Positions 3,362 through 48,193 of a stretch of DNA of 48,505 nt are shown piece by piece. Position 1 is the stretch's first letter, and every line of letters starts with the position of its first letter. The stretch is from the NCBI GenBank assembly GCA_024277275.1, contig JAJRVO010000336.1, positions 1-48,505 on the forward strand, written 5' to 3'. The notes beneath the pieces were generated by a model. That model made no database searches. It worked only from the letters and a program-made list of their open reading frames with translations, and had not been told where the DNA came from. This DNA comes from Chloroflexota bacterium. GTDB lineage: Bacteria > Chloroflexota > Anaerolineae > 4572-78 > J111. Made by a program: the position numbers and the translations under genes.

Positions 3362-3428
3362 CAATGAACAATTAACAATGAGCAATGAACAAAAATCACC
3401 CCTGCACCGCTGCACCCTTGCACCCCTG
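3362..3428. repeat. Short tandem repeats: (CAATNAN)x5 heptamers followed by (CACCNNTG)x4 octamers
   Basis: Direct reading gives caatgaa caattaa caatgag caatgaa caaaaat, then cacccctg caccgctg cacccttg cacccctg. Confidence 0.85.
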
Positions 3429-3430
3429 CT

Positions 3431-3564
3431 GTTGGGTTTCATCAGGTGCGTGTGAAGCTCCGCTTCATAGGCGGCTCCTTTGAAACCCAACTTCGTTCCC
3501 AAATCCAGTTTAGGAACGAAGTTGGGCTTCATCCGGTGTGTGCGAAGCCCCGCTTCATAGGCGG
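3431..3564. repeat. Two copies of a 44-bp direct repeat with nested hairpins
   Basis: GTTGGGTTTCATCAGGTGCGTGTGAAGCTCCGCTTCATAGGCGG (3431-3474) matches GTTGGGCTTCATCCGGTGTGTGCGAAGCCCCGCTTCATAGGCGG (3521-3564). The sequence between them contains TGAAACCCAAC, the reverse complement of the repeat start, and the TTCGTTCC/GGAACGAA stem. Confidence 0.85.
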
Positions 3565-3615
3565 GTATTTAGGGGGTGTTTATATCCTGGAAACCTCTGC
3601 GGCTTTTTGGTGGTT

Positions 3616-4617
3616 TTAGAGCGTAACGGGCTGACCAGACTCAGCGGATTGATAGAGGGCCAAAACGCTTTTCAAAAAATCTCGACTGAGGCTCAGTGGA
3701 ACAACAGGTTCAGCGTCGTCAAAAACACAAGCTTCCATCGCTTCGACTTCGTACAAATAGGGGTCGCTTTGCGGAATCCGGATTGTCTCCTCTGCCCCAT
3801 CTTTAGTAGAGAATATGATTTGGCTGCCTTGACCGGATTGGTGGGGTTTCCAGGGTTCGCTGATTTTGACCAACCCGTCGCTTCCCACAATATGAGCGCC
3901 CTCGCGGAAGGGAGAGCTAAAGCCCGATGAAATTTGAGCCACAACGCCGTTGGCAAACTTCATCTGTCCCTCAAGATAAACCTCAACTCCGGTTTCGCCC
4001 TTAACCTGGCTGGCCCAAACCTCAACCGGCGCCCCGGCTCCGGCCATTACAATAGCCAGGCTGTTGGGGTAAACGCCCACATCCCACAAAGAGCCGCCGG
4101 CCAGATCGGGGGCAAGGCGAATGTTATCTTTGTCTTCCGGGGGTAAATAGTAGGCAAACCAGCTATTAATCATTTGCAACTTGCCCAGTTGGCCGGTCTG
4201 GATCATCTCTTTGACTTTGAGCGTTTGGGGGTGGTGCAGGTACATAAAGGCTTCAAAGACGGTGACGTTGTTGGCTTTGGCTGCCGCTTCAACCCGGTCT
4301 AACTCGGCCATAGTGGGCGTAATGGGCTTCTCGCACAAAACGTGCTTACCGGCTTCGGCAGCCTTAACCGTCCACTCACAGTGGAGGGTGTTGGGCAGGG
4401 GGTTGTAAATTGCGTCTATCTCCGGGTCGGCCAGCAAGTCCTCGTAACTGCCGTGCGCTTTAGGAATACCCTTTTCTTCGGCGTAGGACTTGGCCTTTTC
4501 TATATTTCGACTCGCTACAGCCGCCAACTCGCTCAGCCCGGCCTGGCGGATTGGGTCAAGCAACGCATCATTGATTCCGGCCGTAGACAAAATTCCCCAT
4601 CGGATTTTTTCAGACAT
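3616..4617 (-). CDS. Gfo/Idh/MocA family NAD(P)-dependent oxidoreductase
   Basis: 333 aa. The N-terminus IRWGILSTAGIND is a Rossmann start, and the EKP motif (VLCEKPIT) is present. An AAAGGAGAT RBS precedes the ATG. Confidence 0.85.
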   Translation of the reverse strand: MSEKIRWGILSTAGINDALLDPIRQAGLSELAAVASRNIEKAKSYAEEKGIPKAHGSYEDLLADPEIDAIYNPLPNTLHCEWTVKAAEAGKHVLCEKPITPTMAELDRVEAAAKANNVTVFEAFMYLHHPQTLKVKEMIQTGQLGKLQMINSWFAYYLPPEDKDNIRLAPDLAGGSLWDVGVYPNSLAIVMAGAGAPVEVWASQVKGETGVEVYLEGQMKFANGVVAQISSGFSSPFREGAHIVGSDGLVKISEPWKPHQSGQGSQIIFSTKDGAEETIRIPQSDPYLYEVEAMEACVFDDAEPVVPLSLSRDFLKSVLALYQSAESGQPVTL

Positions 4618-8186: not shown

Positions 8187-8262
8187 ACGACGAATGACGA
8201 ATGACGATGGACGAACGAAACGCCAGCACAAGATTTTTATCGTTCGTCATTCGTCGTTCGTC
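8187..8262. repeat. Heptamer-periodic palindrome, (GACGAAT)n arm / loop / complementary arm
   Basis: acgacgaatgacgaatgacgatggacgaacga ... tcgttcgtcattcgtcgttcgtc. Confidence 0.9.
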
Positions 8263-8322: not shown

Positions 8323-8380
8323 AAAACGTAAAACGTGAAACGTGATTGTTTTTGACGTATGGCTCTCACGTTTCACGTTT
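8323..8380. repeat. Heptamer-periodic palindrome, (AAACGTG)n
   Basis: aaaacgtaaaacgtgaaacgtga ... tcacgtttcacgttt. Confidence 0.9.
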
Positions 8381-8403
8381 CATACATTACGCAAAATTAT
8401 AAG

Positions 8404-8431
8404 GCGAGGCGGTTCGCAAGAACCGCCTCGC
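8404..8431 (-). terminator. Stem-loop downstream of the binding-protein gene (possible intra-operon terminator or attenuator)
   Basis: Perfect 12-bp stem GCGAGGCGGTTC / GAACCGCCTCGC with a 4-nt loop. On the minus strand it is followed by CTTATAATTTTG, a weak U tract. Confidence 0.5.
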
Positions 8432-8453
8432 TCAGAAAAGCAACTAAAATTTG

Positions 8454-9992
8454 TTACTGCGGGAAGCCTGCATCCTCAGCGGCCAAAACAAAGGCGGCTT
8501 GAGCGGCGGCTACATCGCGGTCAGAAGAAAACTGATTGACGATCTGGTAGAATTGCTGTTGCCAGGCAGGAATAGCGCCGGAGCCGTGAGCCACCATCGG
8601 GACGATGCGACTGGATGCAAAATCATCCGCAGCGCTCTGGAAGTAAGCGCGGCGATCTTCAGGGAAGACGCCGTAATCGCAGTCGGTGCGAGCGCAGATG
8701 GAGCCTTTATTCATATTAAAGTTTTCCTGGGCGTCTTTGCGGGTCATGATTCTGACAAATTCACGCGCATTTTCCGGGTTGGGGGCATCCTTGGGAATGG
8801 CAAAGCCGTCGGAAACCAGGAAGAACAGGTTCTGATTGCCGGGCGGGGAATTCCAGGTAACGTAATCCAAAGCTCCCTTGGCAATTATCTCACCATAAGC
8901 CCAGTCACCCATGATGTTGAAAGCGGCCTGGTCGTTGATGACCAGGTCGATACCGCCAACCCAGCCGGTGGAGCCGCGGTCTTCATTAGTGCAGTCCAAC
9001 ATCTTGCCGAAGTTTTCTAAGGCTTGGGCTACCACGGGGTCGGTCCAGGAAACGGAGCCGTTCCACAGGCCCTGATTTGTCTCAAAACCGGTGGTGCCGG
9101 CCAGGGCTACTTCAAAGGTGTGACCCAACTCAAAGCCGTCAGTAGTACCCATCCCTAACGGCACCACACCTTGAGCCTGTAGCGTCTCACAGGCAGCAAA
9201 GAACTCGTCAAAGGTTGCGGGCACGGCTACCCCGGCCTTTTCCAAGACCCGGGTGTTGGTCCACATCACGTTGCCGCGGTGGATATTCAGCGGCACGGTG
9301 TAGGTGTTGCCTCTGATTTTCAGCAGCGCTTTCAGGTCCTCGGGCATCACGTCCAACACGCCGGCTTCGGCCAGAATATCGTCGACCGGCCGCAGGTATG
9401 TTTCGGGCGTGTAAAGCTCGGCTTCCAGACCGGCGTGCAGTTGGAAGGTATCATAAGGATCACCCGCGATCAGCTTGGTCAGGTTCGCGCCCTGAAAGTT
9501 CACCCCAGCGCCGCCGGCGATACCGGCGTGGATCAACTCGACATCGGGATTCTCTGCGCGATAAATCTTGTAAACCTCATTCACCCCGGCAAACTCACCA
9601 CCGGAGGTCCACCAGTTACCCACCAGCAACTGGCCTTTGGCCCCACTGGCAAACAGAACACTGACGTCGCCTGCCGTCGGGTCGAAGTCGGCCATAAAGG
9701 CCACTGCCTCGTCATTGGGGGGGATGCTCAGTTTGGCCCCCACCTCGATGGCGTCGGGGTTTTCAATTTTGGCGTATGAGGCGTCCTCGGCGTTGGCCTT
9801 GTTGGTGGCCGCCATGATGGCCCAGTAAGCGTTTGAGTCGCCGTAAAACTTGTCGGCCAGTTTCGACAGCCAGTCATCGGCCTGGACGGTGTAATCCTCG
9901 CCCTGAGCCGCCGGCGCTGCCACAACCATAGATGCCGGCAAAACCATTGCCAGCAGAGCAATTAAAACTGCAATACTTAGAAACCTTTTCAT
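8454..9992 (-). CDS. Extracellular solute-binding protein (family 1, sugar ABC) with an N-terminal LysM domain
   Basis: 512 aa. It has a signal/anchor MKRFLSIAVLIALLAMVL. A LysM-like segment follows: YTVQADDWLSKLADKFYGDSNAYWAIMAATN...IEVGAKLSIP. The remainder is an SBP-like body. An AAGGAGGAG RBS is present. Confidence 0.75.
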   Translation of the reverse strand: MKRFLSIAVLIALLAMVLPASMVVAAPAAQGEDYTVQADDWLSKLADKFYGDSNAYWAIMAATNKANAEDASYAKIENPDAIEVGAKLSIPPNDEAVAFMADFDPTAGDVSVLFASGAKGQLLVGNWWTSGGEFAGVNEVYKIYRAENPDVELIHAGIAGGAGVNFQGANLTKLIAGDPYDTFQLHAGLEAELYTPETYLRPVDDILAEAGVLDVMPEDLKALLKIRGNTYTVPLNIHRGNVMWTNTRVLEKAGVAVPATFDEFFAACETLQAQGVVPLGMGTTDGFELGHTFEVALAGTTGFETNQGLWNGSVSWTDPVVAQALENFGKMLDCTNEDRGSTGWVGGIDLVINDQAAFNIMGDWAYGEIIAKGALDYVTWNSPPGNQNLFFLVSDGFAIPKDAPNPENAREFVRIMTRKDAQENFNMNKGSICARTDCDYGVFPEDRRAYFQSAADDFASSRIVPMVAHGSGAIPAWQQQFYQIVNQFSSDRDVAAAQAAFVLAAEDAGFPQ

Positions 9993-13089: not shown

Positions 13090-13160
13090 GGAAGTAGGGA
13101 GTAGGCAGTAAGAAGTAAGGGTTTTTCTCCCTACTCCCTACTCCTTACTGCATACTCCCC
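13090..13160. repeat. Heptamer-periodic palindrome, (GGAGTAG-like)n
   Basis: ggaagtagggagtaggcagtaagaagtaaggg tttttct ccctactccctactccttactgcatactcccc. Confidence 0.9.
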
Positions 13161-35422: not shown

Positions 35423-35475
35423 GTATACAAATATGGTGGCTTTTCAGCTTGACCAAATAAAGGTCACATCTTGCG

Positions 35476-35640: not shown

Positions 35641-37011
35641 ATGCCAAACATTCACCTGATTGGCATTGGCGGAGCGGGATTATCCGCCATTGCCACCGTT
35701 CTTTTACAACAGGGATATCGCGTCTCCGGCTCCGATATGCAAGCCTCGGCTGCCACGGCGCGGTTGATTGAAATGGGAGCCGATGTCTTCATCGGCCACC
35801 GGGCCGAAAACCTGAGCGATAACCTGGATGCCGTGGTCGTTTCATCGGCTATTGGGCCGGATAACCCGGAACTGCTGGAAGCGCGGCGGCGCGGATTAAC
35901 CGTCGCCAAACGGGCTGAATGGTTGGGGCAAATGATGCAGGGCCAAAGCGGCATTGCCATTGCCGGAACGCACGGCAAAACCACCACCACCGCTATGACG
36001 GCCTTTGTGCTGCAAGAGTCGGGCCGACGCCCAAGCTATATTGTGGGGGGCTTTGTGCCGCAAATGGAGACCAATGCAGCCGCCGGTCAGGGTCGGGCCT
36101 TTGTTATTGAGGCCGACGAGTATGACCACATGTTCCTGGGCCTGCGCCCGGAAGTGGCTGTTGTAACTATTGTGGAGTGGGACCATCCCGATATCTTTCC
36201 CACATTCACCGATCTCAGAGATGCTTTTGTAGATTTTGTGCGACTTGTTTCCGCCAACGGCCTGATCATTGGCTGCGGCGATGCGCCCGGCGTGCGGGAA
36301 GTTGTCCAACACAGCGCGGCCAAAGTAGTTACCTATGGCCTGCAAGCGGAAAATGATTGGCAGGCAGTTAATCTTGAACCTAACCGGCGCGGCGGATACG
36401 ATTTTAAGGCGCTGTGTCCCCAGGTTGCCGGCCGTCCGGTTGCCGCAATATCTTTGGCCGTGCCGGGATTACACAATGTTTGTAACGCTTTGGCGGCGTT
36501 AATTGTAGCTCATCATCAAGGCGTTGATTTACCACAAGCCGCTGAAATTCTGGGTCGATTCAAAGGGGTGGGTCGCCGTTTTGAGCTGAAAGGCGAGGTC
36601 AACGGGATAACCGTTATTGATGATTACGCCCATCACCCCACCGAGATTAAAGCGACGCTGGCCGCCGCCCGCACCCGTTTTGGCAAGCGCCCCATTTGGG
36701 CGGTGTTGCAGCCTCACACCTTTAGTCGCACCATGTCGCTGCTGGATGATTTTGTGGGCGCTTTTGGCAACGCCGACCACGTAATTGTGGTTGATATTTA
36801 CGCCTCGCGTGAACGTGACGAGGGGCTGGTCAACAGCCGGGATATTGTTGACCGTATGACGCATCCTGACACACGTTACATTGGCCCGCTGGTCGAGACC
36901 GCCGATTACTTGTCAACCCACTTGACTGCCCCGGCTGTGCTGCTCACGCTAGGCGCGGGCGATGGTTATCAGGTTGGGGAGTGGGTTTTGGAAAGGCTGC
37001 GTGGGGCGTAG
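35641..37011 (+). CDS. murC: UDP-N-acetylmuramate--L-alanine ligase
   Basis: 456 aa with IHLIGIGGAGLSAIA, AGTHGKTTTTAM and DDYAHHPTEI. Confidence 0.9.
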   Translation: MPNIHLIGIGGAGLSAIATVLLQQGYRVSGSDMQASAATARLIEMGADVFIGHRAENLSDNLDAVVVSSAIGPDNPELLEARRRGLTVAKRAEWLGQMMQGQSGIAIAGTHGKTTTTAMTAFVLQESGRRPSYIVGGFVPQMETNAAAGQGRAFVIEADEYDHMFLGLRPEVAVVTIVEWDHPDIFPTFTDLRDAFVDFVRLVSANGLIIGCGDAPGVREVVQHSAAKVVTYGLQAENDWQAVNLEPNRRGGYDFKALCPQVAGRPVAAISLAVPGLHNVCNALAALIVAHHQGVDLPQAAEILGRFKGVGRRFELKGEVNGITVIDDYAHHPTEIKATLAAARTRFGKRPIWAVLQPHTFSRTMSLLDDFVGAFGNADHVIVVDIYASRERDEGLVNSRDIVDRMTHPDTRYIGPLVETADYLSTHLTAPAVLLTLGAGDGYQVGEWVLERLRGA

Positions 37012-37040
37012 CATTTCAGCGCTTCAGCTTTTAGAAAATA

Positions 37041-37102
37041 GTAGGTTGGGTCGAAGTATGAGACCCAACAGTTGGGTTTCTCTATCGCTCAACCCAACCT
37101 AC
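37041..37102. repeat. Nested hairpins built on the GTTGGGT / ACCCAAC motif
   Basis: gtaggttgggtc gaagtatga gacccaac agttgggtttc...aacccaacctac. The GTTGGGTTTC 10-mer is shared with 3431-3440. Confidence 0.8.
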
Positions 37103-37137
37103 ACCGGCTGGCTGTGTTTACAGGCATAAACGATGCC

Positions 37138-37191
37138 GGTAATTAGTAAATAGTAATTGGTTAAATTACTATTTACTAATTACCTAATTAC
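37138..37191. repeat. Heptamer-periodic palindrome (TAGTAAT type)
   Basis: ggtaattagtaaatagtaattgg ttaa attactatttactaattacctaattac. Confidence 0.9.
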
Positions 37192-37211
37192 AAAGAGTTT
37201 AGGAGCAACCA

Positions 37212-37451
37212 GTGACTAAACAAAAACTTAAGTTGGTCAAAAGCGGAAAGAAACGCGTAATACCCTCCCCAGAAGCGGTAAAAGAGCAATTGTCCATTTC
37301 CAATCTCCGATCTCCAACCTTAACCCCCGCCGAACAGGTCGAGGCCGAACGCTTTAAAGCATTGACCAAAGAACGCGCCGCTCGGCAAGCGCTGGTGCGC
37401 CGGATTATACGCAAACTCCAAGAGTGGGATGTCCCCTCCAGGGTTGCCTGA
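37212..37451 (+). CDS. Hypothetical small basic protein (79 aa) upstream of murB
   Basis: A GTG start is preceded by AGGAG. It overlaps the murB start by 23 nt and I recognise no family. Coding status is uncertain. Confidence 0.3.
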   Translation: MTKQKLKLVKSGKKRVIPSPEAVKEQLSISNLRSPTLTPAEQVEAERFKALTKERAARQALVRRIIRKLQEWDVPSRVA

Positions 37452-38421
37452 CAACAGGGCGGACTGGGCGCTGAAGCCATTTATTGAGGCGCTGATTGTC
37501 GCCTTTGGCAACAAACCGCGCCGAGACGAACCGCTCTCCGGGCACACCGCCTCTCGCTTAGGTGGACCGGCAGACGTGTGGTTGCCGGTAAATAGTCTGG
37601 CTGAGTTGATTGAAGCGGTTAAGTTGGCCCAACACCATAATACGCCGGTTTTTATGCTTGGCGCAGGGGCCAATCTGCTTATTGGCGACGCGGGTATTCG
37701 GGGGCTGGTGATTGAAAATCGGGCTAATCAGGTCCATTTTCCATCGCCGGCAGAGGTAGGCGAGTCGACAACTTTAATTGTGGAAAGCGGCGCGGTTTTG
37801 CCCAGTTTGGCCCGCCGCTGCGCTAAAGCGGGGTTGAGCGGGTTAGAATGGGCGGCGGGTATCCCCGGCACAATGGGGGGGGCGATTGTTAACAATGCCG
37901 GCGCTTACGGCAGCGACATAGCCGCTGCGCTAATTCGCGCCGAACTGCTCTCGCCGGACGGAGAGCGGGTTTGGCAGCCGGTGAACTGGTTTGAGTATGG
38001 CTACCGCGTATCGCACCTGAAACAAAAAAAGGGCAAAGGCGGCGCGGGTTGGGTTGTTTTGCAGGCTGAGTTGCAAATGACCCAGGCTCCCGTGGAAGAG
38101 ATTCAAGCCCAAATGGATGTATTTAATGAGCGGCGAAAAAGCAGCCAGCCGTCCGGCGCAACAATGGGCAGCATGTTTAAAAATCCGCCCGGAGATTACG
38201 CCGGTCGCTTGATAGAAGCGGCAGGCTTAAAAGGTCATCAAATTGGACAAGCCCAAATTTCGCCTGTTCATGCCAATTTTTTTCAAAATCTGGGCGGGGC
38301 TACAGCCGTCGATATGCTGGCGTTAATAGAAATTGCTCAAGCAACCGTCGAAACCAAGTTTGGGATAAAGCTAGAGCTAGAGATAGAGGTGATTGATGAG
38401 TTCGGCCAAAAAATACGGTAA
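37429..38421 (+). CDS. murB: UDP-N-acetylenolpyruvoylglucosamine reductase
   Basis: 330 aa with [25 protein letters not shown] and [13 protein letters not shown]. Confidence 0.85.
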
Positions 38422-39526
38422 AAAAGTGCGAGTTGGCATTCTCTTTGGCGGGCGCAGCGGCGAGCATGAGGTCAGTTTGGCTTCTGCCCAAGGCATCATG
38501 AATGCGATTGATAAGGACAAATATGAGGTTGTACCCATCGGCATTACCAAAGCCGGTCAGTGGCTGGCCGGGGGAAATATTCACCGGCAGCTTTTAGATG
38601 CGGCAGCCGGGCATCCCGTTGTTGAAGATTTTTTGAAACGGGTTGAGCAATCGGCTGAAAATGCGTTAACTTTACCCATTTCTGAAACCGGCCCGCTCGA
38701 CGTGGTTTTTCCCATATTGCATGGCCCTTTTGGCGAAGACGGCACGGTGCAGGGATTTTTGGAGTTGGTTGGCCTCCCTTACGTGGGGGCCGGTGTAGCA
38801 GCCAGCGCGGTGGGGATGGATAAGGCCATTTGCAAAAATATTTTTGAGGCTCACGGGCTGCCTATTGTGCCTCATCTTACTTTTCTGCGACATCGATGGC
38901 AAACCGACCCGGAAGACGTGATGGCTGAATGCGAAGCAGATTTGAACTACCCGTTGTTTGTAAAACCGGCTAATTTGGGCAGCAGCGTTGGTATCCACAA
39001 GGCCAAAAACCAGGCCGAATTGCGAGTTGGGCTGGACGATGCGGCCCGGTATGACCGCAAATTGATTGTTGAGCAGGGCGTAGACCGGGCCAGAGAGATA
39101 GAGGTTAGCGTATTGGGCAATGATGACCCCATTGCCTCCGTGCCGGGTGAAGTTATTCCCTCGCGCGAGTTTTACAGTTACGCGGCCAAATATCTCGACG
39201 ATAGTTCTGAACTGTTGCTTCCGGCCCCCCTTAGCCGGGAACAAGTTGATTCTATTCAACAAACAGCTATTGCCGCTTTTAAGGCAATGGATTGTGCCGG
39301 TATGGCGCGCTGTGATTTTTTGGTTGACAGAACCACCGGCGAGGTTTTTTTGAACGAGCTTAATACCTTGCCGGGCTTTACGCCCATCAGCATGTATCCT
39401 AAATTGTGGGAAGCCAGCGGCCTATCATACGCTGATTTGATTGATCGCTTAATTCAGTTGGCCATTGAGCGATATGAAGATAAGCAGCAGTCTCAAACTT
39501 CTTTTGATGTAGGTACTGCGGAATAG
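38393..39526 (+). CDS. ddl: D-alanine--D-alanine ligase
   Basis: 377 aa with RVGILFGGRSGEHEVSLASA, HGPFGEDGTVQG, FVKPANLGSSVGI and NELNTLPGFT. Confidence 0.9.
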   Translation: MMSSAKKYGKKVRVGILFGGRSGEHEVSLASAQGIMNAIDKDKYEVVPIGITKAGQWLAGGNIHRQLLDAAAGHPVVEDFLKRVEQSAENALTLPISETGPLDVVFPILHGPFGEDGTVQGFLELVGLPYVGAGVAASAVGMDKAICKNIFEAHGLPIVPHLTFLRHRWQTDPEDVMAECEADLNYPLFVKPANLGSSVGIHKAKNQAELRVGLDDAARYDRKLIVEQGVDRAREIEVSVLGNDDPIASVPGEVIPSREFYSYAAKYLDDSSELLLPAPLSREQVDSIQQTAIAAFKAMDCAGMARCDFLVDRTTGEVFLNELNTLPGFTPISMYPKLWEASGLSYADLIDRLIQLAIERYEDKQQSQTSFDVGTAE

Positions 39527-39700
39527 TCAGTAATTAGTAATTAGTAAATAGTAAATAGTAGTCGGTAGCTGGTGGTTAGTAGCTGGTGGCTGGCGGTTAG
39601 TAGCTGGTAGCTGGTAGCTGGTGGTTAGTAGCAGGTGGTTGGTAGTGGCGAGTAGCGTCTGCTAACGACCAACAGCTATCAGCTACCAGCTGCCAGCTAA
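39527..39700. repeat. About 25 consecutive heptamer units (TAGTAAT drifting to TGGTAGC) with a complementary right arm
   Basis: cagtaat tagtaat tagtaaa tagtaaa tagtagt cggtagc tggtggt tagtagc ... accaaca gctatca gctacca gctgcca gcta. It begins directly after the ddl stop. Confidence 0.95.
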
Positions 39701-39713
39701 TAGGAAGTTAACT

Positions 39714-40610
39714 ATGTTTGGCGCAAAAAAGCGTCGTCGCAAGCGACGTTCGGAACTGCGACTGGGGGCGCAGGCAATCAATTATGAAACAACCGCGGCC
39801 GGGCCGCCTATATCGCTGATCCCGATGCTGAAATTTTGGCAGCGATGGGGGGCCAGGATAAGCGGTATATTGGCGCTGGCTTTTTTAGGCTGGGTTTTTT
39901 ACACGCTCTTTGCCACCCCTTCATTTTATGTGTATGGAGCCAGCATCAAGGGTAATGTGGCTGTATCGACCCGTGAAATCTATATCGTCAGCGGCATCGA
40001 TAGCCAGAACATTTTTTGGGTCAATCCGGCAGAAGTCAGCGAAAGAATAGCCGCTCTGCCCAATATAAAATCAGCCGAAGTGTCGATTGCTTTGCCGTCG
40101 CGGGTTGAAATTGAGGTTGTTGAGCGTCGCCCCCAACTGTTGTGGCAAATTGGTGAAACAGTCTGGTGGGTCGACCAGGAGGGAATAATTGTTCCCCCCA
40201 GAGCCAATGTGGATGGCATGTTGCGCATCATTGACGACGACCGGCAGCCGGTAGAGGTTGGCTATCAAATTGACCCTACTATTATTGAGGGGGCGCAGGC
40301 GTTGCGTATTTTGGTCCCCGATGTATCAATTATTCGCCATACCCGCGCCCAGGGCTTAATTGTAGCCACACCCGACGGCTGGCCGGTATACCTGGGAAAC
40401 GGCAGCGAAATGCGGGCCAAATTGATTGTGCTAAGTTCGCTGCTGGCTAACTTGCGGACAAATGATATAACGCCGTCTTACATTGACTTGCGTAATCCAC
40501 TGAGGCCCGTTTACAAAGAAATGCCCGTTATCAGGATAGCGCCGCCAAAACAAACACCCGGTCAAACCTTTCCATCACAACCGGCAGCGCCATCGTATAG
40601 AAGGCCCTAA
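39714..40610 (+). CDS. ftsQ: Cell division protein FtsQ/DivIB-like (TM helix plus POTRA)
   Basis: 298 aa with a basic N-terminus and the TM helix ILALAFLGWVFYTLF. A POTRA-like segment FYVYGASIKGNVAVSTREIYIVSGI...IEVVERRPQLLW follows. It lies in the position between ddl and ftsA. Confidence 0.7.
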   Translation: MFGAKKRRRKRRSELRLGAQAINYETTAAGPPISLIPMLKFWQRWGARISGILALAFLGWVFYTLFATPSFYVYGASIKGNVAVSTREIYIVSGIDSQNIFWVNPAEVSERIAALPNIKSAEVSIALPSRVEIEVVERRPQLLWQIGETVWWVDQEGIIVPPRANVDGMLRIIDDDRQPVEVGYQIDPTIIEGAQALRILVPDVSIIRHTRAQGLIVATPDGWPVYLGNGSEMRAKLIVLSSLLANLRTNDITPSYIDLRNPLRPVYKEMPVIRIAPPKQTPGQTFPSQPAAPSYRRP

Positions 40611-40618
40611 CCTGAACC

Positions 40619-40866
40619 AGGGAGTGAGTAGTAGAGTATAGGAAGTAGTAGGGAGTAACTATTTTTCCTTACTCCTTACTACTATACTCAGCACGGTCAC
40701 AAAGTAACATTCTGAAAGCCAGAGAATAGGACACAGATTTTCGCAGATAAACACAGATTATGGTAAAAAACTAAACAAAAATCTGTAAAATCTGTGTTCA
40801 TCTGTGTCCCATAAAAATGTTACTTTATGGCCGTTGGCAGTATACTTCCTATTACTTACTTCCTAA
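40619..40866. repeat. Compound nested palindrome of about 250 bp between ftsQ and ftsA
   Basis: Layer 1 is the hairpin 40619-40692 (GGAGTAG-type heptamers). Layer 2 arms are ACGGTCACAAAGTAACATT (40693-711) and AATGTTACTTTATGGCCGT (40816-834). Layer 3 arms are GGACACAGATTTTCGCAGATAAACACAGATT (40729-759) and AATCTGTAAAATCTGTGTTCATCTGTGTCC (40780-809). An outer GGAAGTA-type arm lies at 40838-866. Confidence 0.85.
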
Positions 40867-41128
40867 GCGCCTAATTTTAAGGAAAAACACAAGATGTTGT
40901 GGTATAAACTATTGCAAAATACTATATCTTGTGGTACACTACAATTTACATCTTACCGGCTTTATGAAAATGCAAGTTGGTGCGGCTTTAAAAATTGTGG
41001 GCAAGATGCTGGAGGCAAAAGGCAAAAAAGAAAAAGTTTGGACCTTTGCTCCCTCCATTCTCTTACTGCCGCCGGAGTATCCATTTTGAATAACTTGCAG
41101 CAGGCACACAAAAGGGGAGGAGGCTAGT

Positions 41129-42352
41129 GTGGATCGCACTGTTGTTGCCTTAGACATAGGCACTACAAAAATCTGCACGCTAGTTGCCGAAGTCGGCCCT
41201 CCCCCGGAAGAGAGCTTGCGTGTTGTAGGTGTGGGTACTGTGCCTTCAAGGGGAATCCGTAAAGGGGTGGTGGTAAATGTCAACGAAGTTGCAGCCGCCA
41301 TTGTCGACTCGGTTCGCCTGGCGGAGCGTACCTCTGGATATGAAATTGCCAGCGCCTATGTTGGGTTAGCCGGAGCGCACATTAACGCCGTAAATAGCCG
41401 GGGCGTGGTAGCCATTAGCCGAGGCGAACGGGGTATCCGAACTGTAGATGTTGAAAGGGCTTTGGAATCTGCACGGGCCATCGATATTCCCCACAATCGG
41501 GAGATTCTGCATATTATCCCGCGCGGCTTTACCGTAGATGGCGACGACGGGGTACGCGACCCGGTTGGGATGCAAGGCTACCGGCTGGAGGTTGAAGCCC
41601 ATATTGTTACCGGAGCTACTTCGTCCATTAAAAACCTTATCAGGTGCGTGCAGAGTTGTGGGGTTCAAATTGACGCTTTGGTTTTGGAACCGTTGGCCTC
41701 TGGCGAAGCGGTTTTAACCGACATTTAGCGCGAGATGGGGGTAGTACTGGTTGATATCGGCGGCGGCACTACAGACATCGCCATATTTATAGAAGGCGCC
41801 ATTTGGCACGCCGTTGTTTTACCCACCGGCGGCGAACAATTGACCAACGATGTGGCCGTAGGCTTACGCACCCCCTACAACACGGCAGAAGATATTAAGA
41901 TTAAATACGGGCACGCCCTGCCCCAGGCCGTAATGCTTGAAGAGATTGTTAAGGCCGAAGTGTTTGGCGAAGAAGGTCAACAGCAAATCCCTCGCCAGTT
42001 TTTGGCAGAAATTGTGGGAGCGCGCGCCGAAGAGATTTTTGAGCTGGTCTTAAAAGAGATTAAGCGGAGCGGGTACGATGGACTTTTGCCGGCAGGCATT
42101 GTTTTGTGCGGAGGCACCGCCGAATTACCCGGTATCCGCGATTTGGCCCGCGATGTTATGGGGCTACCGGCCCGTATCGGCGAGCCGCAAAATTTGCGCG
42201 GGTTGGTCGACACGCTACACAGCCCGGCTTTTGCTACCACCGTGGGGTTATTAGAATGGGGCGTAATGCACGACTTGCCCAAACCGGTTCAGCAATCCGC
42301 AAACCACAGTTTGAAGGTGCCGACTTGGTTAAAAGCGTTTTTGCCGGGGTAA
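41129..42352 (+). pseudogene. ftsA: Cell division protein FtsA, interrupted by an in-frame TAG at 41726-41728
   Basis: A GTG start is preceded by GGGGAGGAGG. It reads VALDIGTTKICTLVAE...LEPLASGEAVLTDI, then TAG, then in the same frame REMGVVLVDIGGGTTDIAIF...VLCGGTAELPGI. Together these make one actin-fold FtsA of about 407 codons. Confidence 0.9.
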
Positions 42353-42446
42353 TTGCCGGTAATCAGTAACCGGTAATTAGTAATCAGTAATTAGTGAATA
42401 GTTGACTACAATTACCAATTACTAATTACTAATTACTGGTTACTAG
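42348..42446. repeat. Heptamer-periodic palindrome (CAGTAAT/ATTACTA type) starting at the ftsA stop codon
   Basis: ggtaattgccggtaatcagtaaccggtaattagtaatcagtaattagtgaatag ... attaccaattactaattactaattactggttactag. Confidence 0.9.
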
Positions 42447-42565
42447 TACACGGCGGCGTAAATCCTTCGGTAGTTTATGGAGTGAAAAAGTGCACTTTTT
42501 CACTCCATAAACTAAGCAACGCGCTGCTTGTAACTACCGAAAGACTTCCGCCAAGTTGTACTAGT
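42442..42565. repeat. 124-bp imperfect palindrome upstream of ftsZ with a perfect 38-bp core
   Basis: The core TTTATGGAGTGAAAAAGTGCACTTTTTCACTCCATAAA (42474-42511) is self-complementary. The outer arms are ACTAGTACA...CCTTCGGTAG and CTACCGAAAG...TGTACTAGT. Confidence 0.9.
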
Positions 42566-42607
42566 TATTGATAATATAAGGTTTATCCTATCTAATGGGA
42601 GAGTGAC

Positions 42608-43783
42608 ATGTCCAAAAATAGTAGAAATGATAATTACGCAATGCAGCCCGAAAACTTTGCCCAAATTAAAGTTGTCGGTGTGGGTGGCGGCGGAAGCAAC
42701 GCCGTTAACCGCATGATAGCCGAAGGTTTGCGCGGGGTTGATTTTATTGCCGTTAATACCGATGCCCAGGCGCTATTAATGAGCGACGCGCCTCAGCGGA
42801 TTCGTATTGGCGACAAATTGACCCGTGGTTTGGGCGCCGGCGGTAATCCTGAAGTCGGTCATAAAGCCGCCGAAGAATCTTCTGATGATTTAGAAGAAAC
42901 CATTCGCGGGGCTGATATGGTTTTTGTAACCTGCGGTATGGGCGGCGGAACCGGCACCGGGGCTGCGCCCATCATTGCCGAAACTGCTAAAAACACGGGC
43001 GCTCTAACCATTGGCGTTGTGACTCGCCCCTTTAGCTTTGAGGGAAGCCGTCGCCAAAATCTGGCAATGGAGGGGATTGAAACGCTTAAAGAAAAAGTTG
43101 ACACGTTAATTGTCATCCCCAATGACCGCTTGCTGGAAATTGTCGACAAAAAAGCCAGTATGACCGAGGCCTTCCGTACCGCCGACGACGTACTGCGTCA
43201 GGGTATTCAGGGGATTTCTGAGCTTATCACTGTCCCCGGCTTAATTAACCTGGACTTTGCCGATGTTCGCTCTATTATGAGCGGCGGCGGCTCGTCGCTA
43301 ATGTCTGTTGGCATTGCCACCGGCGAGAACCGGGCTGTTGACGCGGCTGAAATCGCCATCTCTTCCTCGTTGCTGGATGTAACCATTGACGGCGCTCAGG
43401 GTCTTTTGTTTAACATTACCAGCGGCCCCAGCCTGAGTTTGTTTGAAGTCAATGAAGCGGCTGAAATTATCAGAAGAAAAGCGCACCCCGATGCCAATAT
43501 CATCTTTGGCGCGGTTATTGACGAGAGCCTGGATGAAGAATTGCGAATCACCTTAATTGCTACCGGCTTTGATGCTGCTGCGGTTAAGCGCAAGCCCTAT
43601 GTTGCCGGGAAAAGATTAAAAGACACCGATTCCAAAACCATCGCTTTCCCCCAACAAAAAGTCAGAGAAACTTACGCCCGCGAAGAGCAAAAACTTCCTC
43701 ACCGGGAACCGGCTTACGACCCGGAGGATTTGGAAGTGCCCACCTTCCTGCGCAAACGCATCCAAAAGCGTCGAGTTTCTTAA
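42608..43783 (+). CDS. ftsZ: Cell division GTPase FtsZ
   Basis: 391 aa with [33 protein letters not shown] (tubulin signature) and a C-terminal [10 protein letters not shown] peptide. Confidence 0.95.
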
Positions 43784-43853
43784 CCTATTATTGAGAATTC
43801 CTTCCTACGGCCTGAGTGTGGCAGGTAGAAAACCCACACACCGCATCCCCACT

Positions 43854-43889
43854 GCGCCCCTGGCATTCCCCAGCCAGGGGCGCTTTTTT
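43854..43889 (+). terminator. Rho-independent terminator after ftsZ
   Basis: A perfect 10-bp stem GCGCCCCTGG / CCAGGGGCGC with a 10-nt loop is followed by TTTTTT. Confidence 0.7.
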
Positions 43890-43947
43890 GTGGGTATTAA
43901 TTGGATAGTCTCTCGCTTGAATGTTGAAAGCTGTTGATTGTTATTTT

Positions 43948-44015
43948 GAACCGCCAAGACGCCAAGTGCGCCAAGAAAAAAAGAAAATTTGGCGTTCTTG
44001 GTGTTCTTGGCGGTT
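43948..44015. repeat. Periodic palindrome (CGCCAAG)n
   Basis: gaaccgccaagacgccaagtgcgccaag ... ttggcgttcttggtgttcttggcggtt. Confidence 0.9.
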
Positions 44016-44061
44016 AATTTTTCTAGTTTGCAGTCACCAACACTTAACAGGGGGATTATCA

Positions 44062-45941
44062 TTAATTGGAAGGAGCAATAACATCTGAAGCGGTGACTGA
44101 AGTTGGCACCGATTCTACGGCGGGCGTGGCAACCCCAGCCGGTTCAAACTCAACTTCGCGGATGGTCAGGGTATCGTAGTTAACGTGGGCCATAGATTCG
44201 TCAAACGTTTCGGTAAAAAAGCCAACCTCGCCGCCGGCGTAATCAGCATCGCTTACCTGGATGACCGGCTGCCCATTGATGTGGAAGATAAAATCAGAGC
44301 CGTTGGTATCCACGCGGAGGGTGTCTGCGTTGTTCTCGCTAAGAGCGTGTTTCTTAAAGACCGCAGAGGTTTTCTGCGAGACATTTTTAAGCGAATTTGC
44401 CCCGGTTATGAACCTGACTTACAGTTAAAATCGGCTTCGGAAACCTCTGCGGTCTGGTCTACACGATTTAAGAAACACGCTCTAAGACCCTGGATAGAGT
44501 CGTCAGCGCCCTCTGCCAGAACTTCTAACCCGGCGGCGGAACTTTTAAGCGCGTACCAGTTTTTGCTTCGGGGCGAGACGGTGAAGGCGTAAAATTGCTC
44601 GCCTGTGCGGCGAACAACCAGGCCATAGCGGAAGTCGCCGATATCGGTGCCGGTTTTGGCTACAAAAATATTGCTTTCAACGGTAACGTTGTCAAAACCC
44701 GGACCTCGGGAAATTAACCCTCTCTCGCCGGGGGCGTGAACTTCAACGTGGTAAAAATCGGGAGGATGGTAGCCAAAAAGGCCGCTTTCTGCTTCCAGCT
44801 CCGGCCAACCGCTGGTGGGGTTGGTGAAGTTGTCCTCAAACAACACCGTTTCAGTCTCGACAACCGTAACCTCATCTGCCGCGCAGCGAACGCCGGATGT
44901 AGCAGACATTGTAGGCACGCTTGGATCGCCCTGAAGGCGGTAGGCCATATCCTGGACAAAACCGTGCGTGCCGCCGCGCAAAACCCGATTGCCCTCTTCA
45001 ACCGGAGCATAGGGGTCTCCCACCCACTCCCAAACGTTGCCGGCCATATCAAAAACGCCAAAGGGGCTGCGGTTGGCAACGATGCTGCCCACGGCATATG
45101 TGCCGGCCCGGGGGAGTTCAACATCGCGCTCGGTATCTCCCCAGGGGTATGCCAGGCCATGACGACCTCGGGCCGCAGCCTCCCATTCGGCTTCGGTGGG
45201 CAGGCGTTTTCCAGCCCATTGGCAATAAGCGGTAGCTATGTCCCAGGTAATGCCCTCAACCGGGTGGTTTTCTTTTTCGGCCGGAATTGTTCCTGTGGAC
45301 CAGCTTACAGGCGGCTCACGGTCGCCTTCAGCCAAAAATTCCGCATATTGAGCGTTGGTCGCCTCGTATTGATCAATCCAAAACTCGGTCAGTTCAATTT
45401 GCTGTGTTGGGGCGTACTCTGTGCCGGTTACATCCGAGCCGATAATATACGAGTCGGCATGGATTTTAACCATCTGTTTAGACAAGGGCAGGTTAACTGA
45501 GGCCAGGGCTTGCTCTCCCGGCAACGATGGAGATTGCACAAACCGAGAAACCGCATACACGGCCCCCAGGCCAATTAAAAATATAAAAATGGCAACCCCA
45601 ATTCCAACCGACCACAGGAGCGTGTTATTTTTCTTGACAGGTTGGACCGCTTGCATCACGGCAGAGGTGGGTTCAGGCGTTGACGCAATTGGCGTTGACC
45701 TTATCCCTGATGGGCCGGTATCTTGCCGGCTATTTACTCGCGTTTTCTTTTTAGGCGACGGAATAGTCATTTCTTGGAGACTTCGCTTGGCGTCTCTCAA
45801 CCCCGTGGCCATATAGGCAGCAGTTTGGTAACGGTCGGCTGGAGATTTTGCCAGCGCTTTTTGAATGACTTCAACTAATTTATCGGGGGCGTCGCTTTCC
45901 AGGTTTTTTATAGCGACACAGTTTGCAAAGCCCCATAAATG
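44062..45941 (-). pseudogene. Decayed Ser/Thr kinase / FGE-sulfatase (SUMF1-like) gene: 5-prime truncated and disrupted near the 3-prime end by a 138-bp MITE
   Basis: The frame upstream of the ATG at 45812 encodes AIKNLESDAPDKLVEVIQKALAKSPADRYQTAAYMATGL, the C-terminal lobe of a protein kinase domain only, bounded by TGA at 45944-42. A TM helix follows, then the FGE domain (FWIDQYEATNAQY, HPVEGITWD, RLPTEAEWE, NVWEWV, RVLRGG). The C-terminal beta-rich domain is split between ORFs 44406..45812 and 44062..44313, which lie in different frames. Confidence 0.75.
44344..44481. mobile_element. 138-bp MITE with roughly 35-bp imperfect terminal inverted repeats and a 5-bp target-site duplication (CTAAG)
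   Basis: CTAAG occurs at 44339-43 and at 44482-86. The left end AGCGTGTTTCTTAAAGACCGCAGAGGTTT pairs with the right end AAACCTCTGCGGTCT(ggtctacacga)TTTAAGAAACACGCT. Removing the element plus one CTAAG joins ...DDSIQGL to SENNADTLRVDTNGSDFIFHINGQ... in frame. Confidence 0.75.
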
Positions 45942-46109: not shown

Positions 46110-46285
46110 GTTGTTTTTTAGCATAGTGAGGTGGTTTGTGGGGCGGTGCAAGTATTGACGCAGGGAGCTACCACTTTGGTCGAGGCGTTTGCCGGCGGGG
46201 TTGGAGCCAGCTTGGCGGGGGGCGGATAGCTTTAGATTTTAGGCGTTTATTATGCACACATCGACAGTTTTTTATCGATAATTTT

Positions 46286-46378
46286 GAATAGTGAATTGGG
46301 AATAATGAATTGTGAACGGCTTGGTAGCAGTAAATTTTCATTAACAATTCACAATTGGCAATTCACAATTGGCAATTG
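46286..46378. repeat. Periodic palindrome (GAATTGTGA/TCACAATT type)
   Basis: gaatagtgaattgggaataatgaattgtgaa ... ttcattaacaattcacaattggcaattcacaattggcaattg. Confidence 0.9.
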
Positions 46379-46439
46379 ATCCAGCCATTGTCCACCGATA
46401 ATTGTGAATCCCCATTGATCATGATAAAATTCACCTCTT

Positions 46440-48080
46440 ATGCTGGGAGCTTACTTTTCTCCATTGGCGCCGGCGGCTGTTTTGCTGTTGAGCGTCTTCA
46501 TTTTGCCTGTTGTTATTTTGCCTGCCCATCGGGGGATACGTAATTTTGGCGCTTCGGGGTTGGTGGGAGTAGCTTTTTTGAGCCTGCTGGGTATTCGCCT
46601 CACCCCCGGCAGCGACGCTATGGGCGCGGGACTGGAACTACTCTCCGGCTGGAACTTTTCCACGGCCGAGTCCGCCGCGGCGCTAACAGTCAGGGCCGAC
46701 ACGTTGAGCCTGCCCTTTCTCATTGTAACCTTGCTGGTTCTCCTGGCCGTGACGCTACTTCGCTCCGATGCTGCCGCAGCCGAGAACGGTCATTGGACTC
46801 AAGTATCCGGCTGGCTGTTGATGGGGGCGGGCGCTTGCCTGCTGTTTGTCTCGGCTAATGGCTTGACCCAACTTTATGCGGTTATGGTTTTTGATACCTT
46901 TGCCGCGTTTTATTGGCTGGGACGAGGCCACCGTAATTTGGGCGTCGCTCGGTTGTTTTTGGGGATATTCACTGCCGCCGGGTTGATATTGGCTACGTTA
47001 ACCCCAACAATTGGAGCTGTACCCGGCCTGCTGTTGTTGGGCCTGGCTCTGTGGTTGCGATTGGGACTGTACCCCTTTATGGAAGCCACAGCCCACGCCC
47101 CCTGGCGCAGCGACGAGCGTTTGGCCTATCTAAGCCTGTCTCTGACCGTGGGAATGTATCTGGTTATCAGAGTGGTCAGCGAGCCTCTGCCGGAGATTAT
47201 CCGCTGGCTGACCGTCGTCGCCATGCTGTTGGGCGGTTTATTGACCTGGTTGACCGGGTCGTCTCTTCCCCTTGCCGGAGATGCAGGCAAGCCGGTGGGA
47301 GAAAGACGCGCTTCATTGCTGGCCTGGTTGGTTTTTACCGAAGCCCTGCTCATCTTGGCGGCACGGCCATTGGCTACCGGTACGGCCATCGCTTTTGCTG
47401 TTGGCCTCATCTTGAGTCTGGTTGCTCTGTGGGTTACGCCAGCCCTGGGACGGCCTCGTCTTAGCGAGGGGGCCTGGTCATGGCCCTATCTGCCCGCCGT
47501 TGTCGCCACCCTAACCTTGATTGGCGCGCCCCTTTTGCTGGGCTTGCCGGCCCGAGTCGCCATTTACCAATCGCTGTTTCGTATAGACAAATTAACTATT
47601 GTTTTGATTGTCATCCTGGCTGAAGGGTTAGCTTTGAGCGGGTTGATTCGCTACTGGCTAATTTTGGGACAAGGCAATGAAGCCGGCGGTCGTCGCTCTG
47701 TGGTAGGGATTGTGGCGATGGTTCCATTTTTGACGCCCGGCTTGGCTCCCTTTATTTTATCGGCCATAACTGAAATTGAGTTGTCTTTGGGCGGAGTGGA
47801 GTGGTCATTTGGCTTATTGGGTATTAACATTGCCATTGTGTTAGGGGCTGTTGGCTTAGGTTATTTTAGGGGCCAAATCATCGACCGGCTAGAAATTCCG
47901 GCTGAAACTATGGTTAGACTCATCCGCTTGAATTGGCTGCTCCGCTGGGGGGAGTCGCGCCTTAACCAAATTAGTAAGGTAGCGCTCCGGGTTCGGGTGA
48001 CTCTGGAAGGACAGCATTATTTGGGTTGGGCAGTTTTTACAGCGTTAGTAGGAGCCTTAATTATTCTTTTAAGAACGTAG
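46440..48080 (+). CDS. Polytopic membrane protein of unknown function (546 aa)
   Basis: A long ORF with at least 12 hydrophobic helices. The N-terminal region (RADTLSLPFLIVTLLVLLAV) shows only a vague resemblance to NuoL/N/MrpD-type antiporter-like subunits. Confidence 0.5.
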   Translation: MLGAYFSPLAPAAVLLLSVFILPVVILPAHRGIRNFGASGLVGVAFLSLLGIRLTPGSDAMGAGLELLSGWNFSTAESAAALTVRADTLSLPFLIVTLLVLLAVTLLRSDAAAAENGHWTQVSGWLLMGAGACLLFVSANGLTQLYAVMVFDTFAAFYWLGRGHRNLGVARLFLGIFTAAGLILATLTPTIGAVPGLLLLGLALWLRLGLYPFMEATAHAPWRSDERLAYLSLSLTVGMYLVIRVVSEPLPEIIRWLTVVAMLLGGLLTWLTGSSLPLAGDAGKPVGERRASLLAWLVFTEALLILAARPLATGTAIAFAVGLILSLVALWVTPALGRPRLSEGAWSWPYLPAVVATLTLIGAPLLLGLPARVAIYQSLFRIDKLTIVLIVILAEGLALSGLIRYWLILGQGNEAGGRRSVVGIVAMVPFLTPGLAPFILSAITEIELSLGGVEWSFGLLGINIAIVLGAVGLGYFRGQIIDRLEIPAETMVRLIRLNWLLRWGESRLNQISKVALRVRVTLEGQHYLGWAVFTALVGALIILLRT

Positions 48081-48133
48081 AGTATAAAGTGGCAAAGCCA
48101 CAACCAAATTAACTACAGCGTCGTCGCTTGGCG

Positions 48134-48193
48134 TGTCATTGGTCATTTGTCCTTCGTCATTTGCAAATGACAAGTGACCAATGACCAATGACA
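48134..48193. repeat. Heptamer-periodic palindrome (GTCATTG / TGACCAA type)
   Basis: gtgtcattggtcatttgtccttcgtcatttg caaatgacaagtgaccaatgaccaatgac, with almost no loop. Confidence 0.9.

Follow-up and report, generated by a model that had tools for sequence, protein, structure and literature searches.

Tandemly repeated heptanucleotides have been known in cyanobacteria since 1990 and were later recognized in a few other bacteria. The short tandemly repeated repetitive (STRR) heptanucleotide sequences of cyanobacteria were reportedly described by Mazel et al. in 1990, and small dispersed repeats nested in heptamer arrays are said to have been found by Elhai et al. in 2008. Among long simple-sequence repeats, heptanucleotide arrays are the most frequent kind in several bacteria, to judge from the summary in PMC4679880 of the survey by Mrazek (2007), and the heptamer repeats of Nostoc provide a cyanobacterial case (bioRxiv 10.1101/2022.06.06.494920). 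TAACTGA direct repeats occur in Beggiatoaceae, Cyanobacteria and Bacteroidetes (MacGregor 2015, PMC4679880); 169 sets are direct and one is inverted, and they end a few nucleotides upstream of start codons. Repetitive extragenic palindromes (REPs) are palindromes of 20-40 nt with a stem of 5-13 bp, a family-conserved sequence and an unpaired terminal GTAG/CGTC tag (PMC3733652; PMC3116915). Chloroflexus aurantiacus carries a dispersed satellite, Fam_1_14_23, with a 2x7-nt unit and the consensus GATAGaAgATAGGA (PMC6749651), and the mitochondrial DNA of Lentinula edodes contains Type I symmetric VNTRs (tandem repeats of variable number), where (unit)n is followed by (reverse-complement unit)n and which have been proposed to lengthen as a small hairpin unit is inserted time after time in the middle of its complement (PMC6679062). 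Here we describe heptamer-periodic palindromes in a stretch of 48,505 nt from a Chloroflexota bacterium (contig JAJRVO010000336.1 of assembly GCA_024277275.1, positions 1-48,505; hereafter the window), where they lie between genes and at junctions of the division and cell wall (dcw) cluster. Our literature searches returned no description of heptamer-periodic palindromes in Chloroflexota. The elements are best read as STRR-like units combined with REP-like placement, and on balance they are probably dispersed, slippage-prone palindromic heptamer microsatellites that are tolerated right after stop codons, any effect on mRNA being secondary.

Coding and non-coding DNA were separated by a gene model of open reading frames (ORFs) with NCBIfam and Pfam matches, and arrays were collected with Tandem Repeats Finder (TRF) at periods 7, 14, 21 or 28, merged and retained at 18 nt or more, which gave 31 arrays in the window. 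Base autocorrelation of the non-coding DNA peaked at lags 7, 14, 21 and 28 (0.335, 0.319, 0.319 and 0.283, respectively), whereas coding DNA showed the 3-nt codon signal only (0.244 at lag 7). The 7-nt periodicity proposed in a first-pass annotation of this DNA is thus strong in non-coding DNA and lacking in coding DNA, and TRF placed period-7 (or 14/21/28) arrays at essentially every repeat locus listed there. Enrichment between genes, tested within the window, was likewise confirmed, with 24 of the 31 arrays located in the 14.5% of the sequence that is non-coding (binomial p = 6.7e-15). Hairpin organization was assessed by the presence of a reverse-complement 14-mer with at most 2 mismatches and at most 150 nt away; such a partner accompanied 19 of 31 arrays (61%), compared with 1 in the reversed sequence and 0 in the complement-only control, and an inverted-repeat search recovered the arms directly, e.g., arms of 72 nt at 24670-24817. 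About 15 hairpins (H1-H15, Table 1) with variable length and stems of 21 to ~70 bp resulted, and the 12 that were folded as RNA against dinucleotide shuffles had z-scores between -3.0 and -9.9; folding and partner test together support the organization as hairpins that had been claimed from inspection. The arms of most short elements are 88-100% complementary. Across the elements, arms are often unequal in length, as in H4 (136 vs 27 nt) and H9.

Some details of the earlier description had to be revised. At least 16 loci had been said to share one architecture; about 15 hairpins stood, while three loci with CAATGAA/CAATTAA units turned out to be direct arrays without a partner arm. The hairpin at 43948-44015, listed with the unit CGCCAAG, is indeed a hairpin, with units of 8-9 nt, and the element at 46286-46378 forms one weakly (z = -3.0). 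Most of the hairpins assigned to dcw junctions were upheld, except that at ftsI-murF, which is not counted as a heptamer hairpin because its CAATTAA/CAATGAA array has no partner arm and stands beside a non-heptamer palindrome. The observation that several elements start at a stop codon is accurate: H9 begins at the base directly after the ddl stop (0 nt), and the distances are 3 nt for ftsA, 5 nt for ftsL and 8 nt for ftsQ, whereas the stop codon of the epimerase gene on the - strand (21404-22378) is included in the right arm of H4. H5, the longest element, spans from 5 nt past the ftsL stop to 5 nt short of the ftsI ATG, and the Shine-Dalgarno (SD) sequence and ATG of ftsQ lie 13 nt beyond H9.

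Comparison with 22 cyanobacterial loci (385 kb, 80 arrays) revealed both kinship and difference. Array density per 10 kb was 6.4 in the window, 0.26 in close relatives (153 kb) and 2.1 in the cyanobacterial loci, and the window equals or exceeds the richest cyanobacterial locus sampled. Like cyanobacterial STRRs, the window arrays consist of tandem 7-nt units, are intergenic and occur in many unit variants per genome. Six unit classes were shared exactly with the cyanobacterial loci (null mean 1.9 for composition-matched random heptamers), and one-mismatch unit pairs numbered 82, compared with a null of 35 +/- 7.6. Among the common classes are AATGACC (= TTGGTCA), ACTCCCT, AATTACC, AACAATT and AATTGCC, the first of them supporting the STRR unit TTGGTCA that the annotation had named. 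In blastn-short searches H1, H15, H3 and H5 matched cyanobacterial arrays (L-numbers here and below denote loci from other assemblies used for comparison): 19 nt of H1 are identical to an array in L051, an array of L051 also has the H15 class AATGACC, and H3 has its unit class in common with the CTACTCC arrays of L061. STRRs in the original sense, however, are hosted by (heterocystous) cyanobacteria, whereas the window belongs to a Chloroflexota; only 7 of the 80 cyanobacterial arrays had a reverse-complement partner (4-8 in the controls), i.e., background level against the 61% of the window; and the window elements sit directly past stop codons in an essential operon. The occurrence of STRR-like heptamer repeats organized as hairpins in a non-cyanobacterial genome is hence borne out. 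The TAACTGA repeats resemble the window arrays as heptamer arrays of filamentous bacteria with a patchy phylogenetic distribution; TAACTGA is the commonest class in the cyanobacterial loci sampled, and the commonest window unit, TTACTGA (reverse strand of AGTAATC), is one base away from it. The window arrays differ from them as inverted pairs that start 0-8 nt past stops.

The dcw cluster of the window has the order mraZ-rsmH-ftsL-ftsI-murF-mraY-murD-ftsW-murG-...-murC-murB-ddl-ftsQ-ftsA-ftsZ, its gene identifications being sustained by family matches. The closest FtsW and FtsQ homologues belong to metagenome-assembled genomes (MAGs) labelled Caldilineaceae, Anaerolineae or Chloroflexota with identical gene order; a metagenome FtsQ scan returned 5 loci, none above 64%, and closer relatives (71-77%) were obtained from a protein search and contig look-ups. 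Exact-protein look-ups of the window FtsQ and FtsZ gave no record, and none of the assemblies found was of the same species. As judged from these genes, and with mraZ and ftsA present in the cluster, the host, a filamentous bacterium, is a Caldilineaceae/Anaerolineae-like Chloroflexota and not a cyanobacterium, as had been supposed. Junctions in the window are far longer than in L002-L004: 212 nt vs -4 to -1 nt at ftsI-murF, 193 vs -1 to 19 nt at murF-mraY, 187 vs -1 nt at ddl-ftsQ, 255 vs 33-43 nt at ftsA-ftsZ (32-69 nt among relatives) and 162 vs 34-36 nt at ftsL-ftsI. This last range in the relatives depends on tblastn anchors and would be smaller should ftsI truly start at an upstream ATG. 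The junction between the orthologue of the unknown gene 34640-35422 and murC measures -1 to 9 nt in the relatives, and that past ftsQ, which holds H11 in the window, 226-275 nt compared with 518 nt. In the relatives the stop and start codons at dcw junctions overlap or are coupled. The window ftsA-ftsZ insert keeps the native ftsZ SD (TGATGGGAGAGTGAC-ATG) at its 3' edge. Because the orthologous junctions are short, overlapping or coupled, the hairpins are, on this comparison, evidently lineage-specific and dispensable; they also turn over fast.

The ddl-ftsQ junction illustrates this. A heptamer hairpin is present there in five independent assemblies, with units that differ in each: TAGTAAT drifting to TGGTAGC in the window, CAGTAGT/CGGTAGT in L090, CAGTAGC in L088, AGTAGTC in L001 and GCGTATT/GCGTAGT in L086. 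It is absent from L087, L089, L091 and L002-L004, and the junction of L006 measures 22 nt. The empty sites read 'gaataa-TCT-atg' in L087 and 'taaatg' in L002-L004, whereas the filled sites extend over 187 nt in the window and 127 nt in L090 from stop to ATG; the added DNA sets in at the stop, or no more than a few bases from it, and stops just short of the ribosome-binding site. When mapped on a neighbour-joining tree of FtsQ, which is only indicative, the presence of the hairpin is patchy, and several gains or losses are needed. Presence, absence and unit turnover, which the annotation had proposed to look for in sister genomes, are all seen at this junction. Since elements of the same kind recur across independent NCBI, JGI and Logan assemblies, they are real. 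A suspicion that the short ftsQ contigs of relatives end in repeats was not obviously confirmed in the three inspected. In L088, palindromes of equal architecture are built of 9-nt units at 2212-2330 and 8467-8507 (AGAGTTTGT / AAACCCTAC), so the tandem-unit palindrome design is not strictly bound to 7 nt in the clade.

Several sequence identities point to dispersal, and the spreading component suggested for the repeats is thereby strengthened. H4 and H12 share an exact 16-mer across the loop (AGTTGACTACAATTAC) with an 8-nt non-periodic core, AGTTGACT. The unit order CGGTAAT-TAGTAAA-(TGGTAAA)-TAGTAAT is common to H7, H8 and the start of H9; H7 reads GGTAAT-TAGTAAA-TGGTAAA-TAGTAAT, and H8 has the same order less one unit. 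Arm segments of 17 nt also recur at non-orthologous junctions in other genomes: that of H1 is found again in L088, in a hairpin between ftsQ and orf71, and that of H6 in a similar hairpin at another junction of the more distant L074 (complete chromosome OZ241372.1). Signatures of slippage are equally present, namely the H5 arm that consists of 9.4 identical units and the 21-nt super-unit of H4, whose 6.5 copies (94-100% identity) are confined to one arm and face 4 units opposite. Arms grow in steps of 7, 14 or 21 nt, often unequally.

These data suggest the following course of events. Palindromic seeds of 3-5 units per arm, of families such as xxGTAAT/xxGTAGY, GACGAAT, GATGCGT, GGAGTAG and others that recur across related genomes, would give rise to copies at other intergenic positions of the same genome, as the shared sequences imply. 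Comparison with the empty sites shows that they land or survive just past a stop codon, ahead of the ribosome-binding site that follows, whereby stop-start overlaps are broken and nothing is destroyed. Each arm then behaves as a heptanucleotide microsatellite, as the array structure shows, with replication slippage by 7, 14 or 21 nt that is often independent of the other arm; because arms gain and lose units in this way, the unit sequence is soon replaced, whereas tandem units with an inverted partner persist as a pattern. On the polycistronic dcw mRNA the resulting stems of 21 to ~70 bp, having no U-tract, would cause no termination, would uncouple translation and could serve as RNase III targets or 3'-exonuclease barriers, by analogy with REP elements; such effects on mRNA would have come as a by-product or through co-option at a later stage.

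A number of observations weigh against this explanation. Neither a target-site duplication nor a conserved terminal inverted repeat was found in the comparison of filled and empty sites, and no transposase gene was found among the window ORFs, so the copying step is drawn only from shared short sequences. A convergent preference for certain units could partly explain these, the same classes being present in cyanobacteria. The two arms of H5 are nearly equal (9.4 and ~9 units) though homogenized to different unit variants, which independent slippage explains poorly and which hints at coupled arm growth or selection for pairing. Recurrence at ddl-ftsQ in at least three lineages could reflect selection for structure there, and the sizes of unit families are those seen within 48.5 kb of the genome only. 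It is conceivable, though doubtful, that an undescribed self-propagating mechanism adds 7-nt units to both arms of the palindrome; candidates would be a dedicated enzyme that performs hairpin-primed templated synthesis, or nested insertion in which a 14-nt mini-hairpin enters its own centre. The centre insertion proposed for L. edodes adds a unit to both arms and could account for arms as even as those of H5, but H4 and H9 do not fit it; moreover, that system belongs to a eukaryotic organelle, has GC-rich units of 9-11 nt and shows no relation to operon junctions. If such a mechanism existed, a single heptamer machinery would stand behind cyanobacterial STRRs, the TAACTGA repeats of Beggiatoaceae and the Chloroflexus satellites, which would explain the unit repertoire common to unrelated filamentous bacteria, and the question of why the unit is 7 nt would become open to experiment.

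Mobilization by a transposase offers another source of copies. The elements would then be miniature REP-like substrates, or substrates resembling REP doublets (REPINs), of a single-strand-DNA Y1 transposase encoded elsewhere in the genome, of the REP-associated tyrosine transposase (RAYT) or IS200/IS605 type; a motif that every unit contains (e.g., GTAG/GTAA, reverse complement TTAC, or CGTC) would be cleaved and ligated again and again, and the heptamer periodicity would follow as a by-product. Likeness to REPs and REPINs is considerable: palindromes outside coding sequence that mostly follow genes, between co-directional or convergent ORFs, families that are dispersed and species-variable, frequent G:T pairs, presumed effects at the mRNA level and presence in some Chloroflexi. 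Dispersed copies with a common loop and unit order, the same families at non-orthologous sites in other genomes, the REP-like location downstream of genes and the existence of GTAG-tagged REPs in Chloroflexi (PMC3733652) all agree with this proposal, as does the GTAG or GTAA found in every unit of 8 of 15 hairpins, with CGTC present in H1 and H15. Yet 7 hairpins have no GTAG, GTAA or CGTC in the repeating unit (H15 has one CGTC near the centre), and the motifs, which lie inside the repeated units of 9-10 of the 15 hairpins, apparently do not form a single unpaired terminal tag. The window stems of 21 to ~70 bp are internally periodic and variable in length, with units that differ between loci, in contrast to REP stems of 5-13 bp, and no RAYT gene or other such transposase is encoded in the window. 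A target-site signature is lacking as well: the terminal inverted repeats and target-site duplication that define miniature inverted-repeat transposable elements (MITEs) were not observed, with no duplicated flank between filled and empty sites. We therefore regard transposase mobilization as rather improbable. The satellite of C. aurantiacus, scattered over a Chloroflexi genome and read by its authors as transposed, resembles the window elements in its dispersal, but comprises direct tandem arrays of another unit, for which palindromes are unreported, in a member of Chloroflexia as opposed to an Anaerolineae/Caldilineae-like host. A purely local origin, in which chance heptamers slip and are then duplicated in inverted orientation by fold-back or template switch with no movement between loci, would ascribe likeness between loci to a mutational preference for certain heptamers. 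Preference alone can create similarity, unit classes are shared with cyanobacteria above chance, most unit families are single in the window, and the ddl stop context GAGTAG-TC resembles an AGTAGTC unit; heptamer preference alone, however, predicts none of the non-periodic loop core identical in H4 and H12, the multi-unit order common to H7, H8 and H9, or the 17-nt identities across unit variants in other genomes, which makes a local origin very unlikely. An artefact of chimeric fold-back reads or mis-assembled low-complexity sequence deserves hardly any credence. Some library preparations are known to produce palindromes, and two in-frame stop codons in conserved genes indicate that the window sequence is not error-free, but four further assemblies, produced by different projects with different assemblers, have comparable heptamer hairpins at the same junction, the elements are placed exactly between intact ORFs with ribosome-binding sites kept, and the strict intergenic restriction is not artefact-like.

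Stems of REP elements and of phage T7 intercistronic sites serve as RNase III substrates or as barriers to 3' exonucleases, and a REP following a solute-binding-protein gene is the classic malE-malF situation. The window elements might accordingly be selected RNA elements, which set segmental mRNA stability and processing (RNase III, 3'-end protection) or attenuate read-through, their structure being held while the sequence drifts. Stable stems (z of -3 to -10), placement right past stop codons with the downstream SD free, a ddl-ftsQ hairpin in five genomes though the units differ, the 88-100% complementarity kept by the arms of most short elements, and the position of H1 and H2 after the solute-binding-protein gene of an ATP-binding cassette (ABC) operon speak for this possibility. 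At least six related genomes, however, lack the hairpins at the orthologous junctions, where the genes overlap or abut, the arms of H4 and H9 are grossly unequal, and long runs of identical units denote recent expansion, not conserved length. Selection on the sense RNA should accumulate G:U pairs on the sense strand, and we compared G:U with A:C mismatches and the minimum free energy of sense and antisense RNA, a strand-asymmetry test that cannot separate the hypotheses; G:U pairs numbered 41 sense and 45 antisense, without a sense-strand bias, and H5 folded at -83.8 kcal/mol as - strand (antisense) RNA compared with -48.8 as + strand (sense), the bias of H9 being opposite. The strand test argues against strong sense-strand selection. 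The sole strong terminator site in 24150-44100 is a GC stem at 43854-43883 followed by T6 after ftsZ, a sequence conserved in L086 and L088; the terminator scan of that region called no heptamer hairpin and found none with a T-run, so the hairpins would be internal to a polycistronic transcript. An Rfam scan of the whole window at gathering thresholds gave 0 matches, and the tRNA scan of the window found none. The argument that a conserved architecture implies an RNA-level role in punctuating an essential operon consequently failed: the relatives' junctions are short or empty, and neither U-tracts nor a sense-strand G:U bias was found. Selected RNA elements are thus an unlikely explanation. 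An effect on mRNA through processing, a 3' barrier or translational uncoupling is possible, but looks like a consequence of the elements and not the reason they exist.

Table 1. Heptamer-array hairpins (H1-H15) and direct arrays of the window, with positions in the 48,505-nt stretch and folding z-scores
Element	Position	Location	Units and structure	z-score
H1	8187-8262	gap between solute-binding-protein and permease genes (both - strand)	GACGAAT/ATTCGTC hairpin	-3.55
H2	8323-8382		AAACGTG/CACGTTT hairpin	-6.32
H3	13090-13160	gap of two - strand genes	GGAGTAG-like units (AGTAGGG/CCCTACT)	-5.92
H4	21247-21412		left arm 6.5x 21-nt super-unit AATCGGT-AGTCAGT-AATCAGT; right arm ~4 units	
H5	24669-24820	ftsL-ftsI	(AGTAATC)x9.4 at 100% identity, 16-nt loop, (AATTACC)x5 plus variant units	
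H6	28288-28352	murF-mraY	GATGCGT/ACGCATC hairpin; inverted repeat 93% complementary	-9.86
H7	35476-35569	between gene 34640-35422 and murC	GTAAT-family hairpin	-5.79
H8	37138-37191	downstream of murC	perfect 21-bp GTAAT-family hairpin	-8.19
H9	39527-39700	ddl-ftsQ	TAGTAAT drifting to TGGTAGC; arms ~124 and ~42 nt	
H10	40619-40692	8 nt past ftsQ stop	GGAGTAG-like units, 7-10 nt	-3.31
H11	40729-40809		CACAGAT/ATCTGTG units with short spacers	-7.27
H12	42356-42446	ftsA-ftsZ, 3 nt past ftsA stop	GTAAT-family hairpin	-7.85
H13	43948-44015	~60 nt downstream of ftsZ terminator	8-9-nt units CGCCAAGA/TTGGCGTTC	-9.43
H14	46280-46378	upstream of gene at 46440	AATTGTGA/TCACAATT-type arrays; weakly hairpin	-3.01
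H15	48134-48195	after gene 46440-48080	near-perfect GTCATTG/TGACCAA palindrome; 88% complementary	-8.05
Direct array	3362-3392 (+)		CAATGAA/CAATTAA; no partner arm	
Direct array	20150-20179 (+)	adjoining MITE-like palindrome 20008-20125	AATTAAC/AATGAAC	
Direct array	26684-26714 (-)	ftsI-murF, by MITE-like palindrome 26568-26687	CAATTAA/CAATGAA-type; inverted orientation	

Further features of the elements concern their surroundings. H2 is located downstream of a terminator-like GC hairpin (8403-8433), H6 is nested within a larger imperfect inverted repeat, and both H10 and H11 lie between ftsQ and a small ORF preceding ftsA. This ORF (40894-41127, 77 aa, no Pfam match), directly upstream of ftsA, is conserved by sequence as well as by position in L086, L088, L089 and L001, where it has 71-77 aa. 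Between ftsA and ftsZ, a non-heptamer structure at 42442-42565 comprises a 34-nt inverted repeat around a perfect 23-bp palindrome (42471-42514); the relatives, whose junctions measure 32-69 nt, lack it. Many units contain a stop triplet (TAA or TGA in AGTAATC, GACGAAT, AAACGTG and GATGCGT), but CGCCAAG does not; the idea that a tandem 7-mer with a stop triplet closes all three frames was dropped, with too few loci to sustain it.

Other repeats were observed in the window and its relatives. The MITE-like palindromes at 20008-20125 and 26568-26687 are ~120 nt long, have the termini GGGTGTGTTTCA...TGAAACACACCC and are each adjoined by a CAATGAA/CAATTAA array; an element related to them lies downstream of ftsQ in L090 (~1300-1470). 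The direct array at 3362-3392 is adjoined by an octamer array, CACCCCTG x4 (3397-3429), past which lie two direct repeats of 44 nt, at 3431-3474 and 3521-3564, that are 89% identical and each hairpin-capable. At 1777-1909, in the N-terminal extension of a PfkB-kinase ORF, stand 7.4 copies (98% identity) of the 18-nt unit CCTTCCCTGTTGGGAAGA, each of which makes up a 6-bp mini-hairpin (CTTCCC-TGTT-GGGAAG); because it lies upstream of the Pfam domain start, this array, a kindred 'tandem palindrome' theme, is probably non-coding. TCGATTT is repeated 4.9 times (96% identity) at 17637-17670 inside the coding sequence of a 1615-aa kinase/AAA_16/GAF protein, with the frame intact, in the linker joining the kinase and ATPase domains. 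In L005, a 1.1-kb insertion between murD and ftsW (3078-4219) contains an apparent ORF and then two long near-identical hairpins (GGAGTCCAAATCTTTAGATTTG...).

Among neighbouring genes, 33801-34583 and 34640-35422 are tandem paralogues of 260 aa each, with no Pfam family, between murG and murC; the pair is kept in relatives, some of which appear to have a single copy. The two in-frame stops are a TAG in ftsA (41726-41728), at a Glu invariant in 10 relatives, and a TAA in mraZ (22994-22996), at a D/E/A position; in both genes the frame beyond stays conserved, and sequencing errors (G>T), nonsense mutations of very recent date and read-through are all conceivable causes. About 70 nt upstream of mraZ, 5-6 decamers of GTGGG(G)TAAA type are spaced by 10 nt (22586-22642) and resemble the TGGGN direct-repeat operator that MraZ binds in other bacteria.

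With the elements described here, Anaerolineae/Caldilineae-like Chloroflexota join the bacteria that carry heptamer arrays, and the density matches that of the richest cyanobacterial loci sampled. The unit repertoire shared across phyla suggests either exchange or a sequence preference held in common. Their palindromic arrangement joins microsatellite dynamics to REP-type placement, and each element has an internal 'clock' in the comparison of arm with arm and of outer with inner units. Insertion is clean, between stop and start codons in one of the most conserved bacterial operons, and turns translationally coupled genes into genes with structured spacers of 160-250 nt. With filled, empty and different-unit alleles at one junction, the clade constitutes a natural comparative series.

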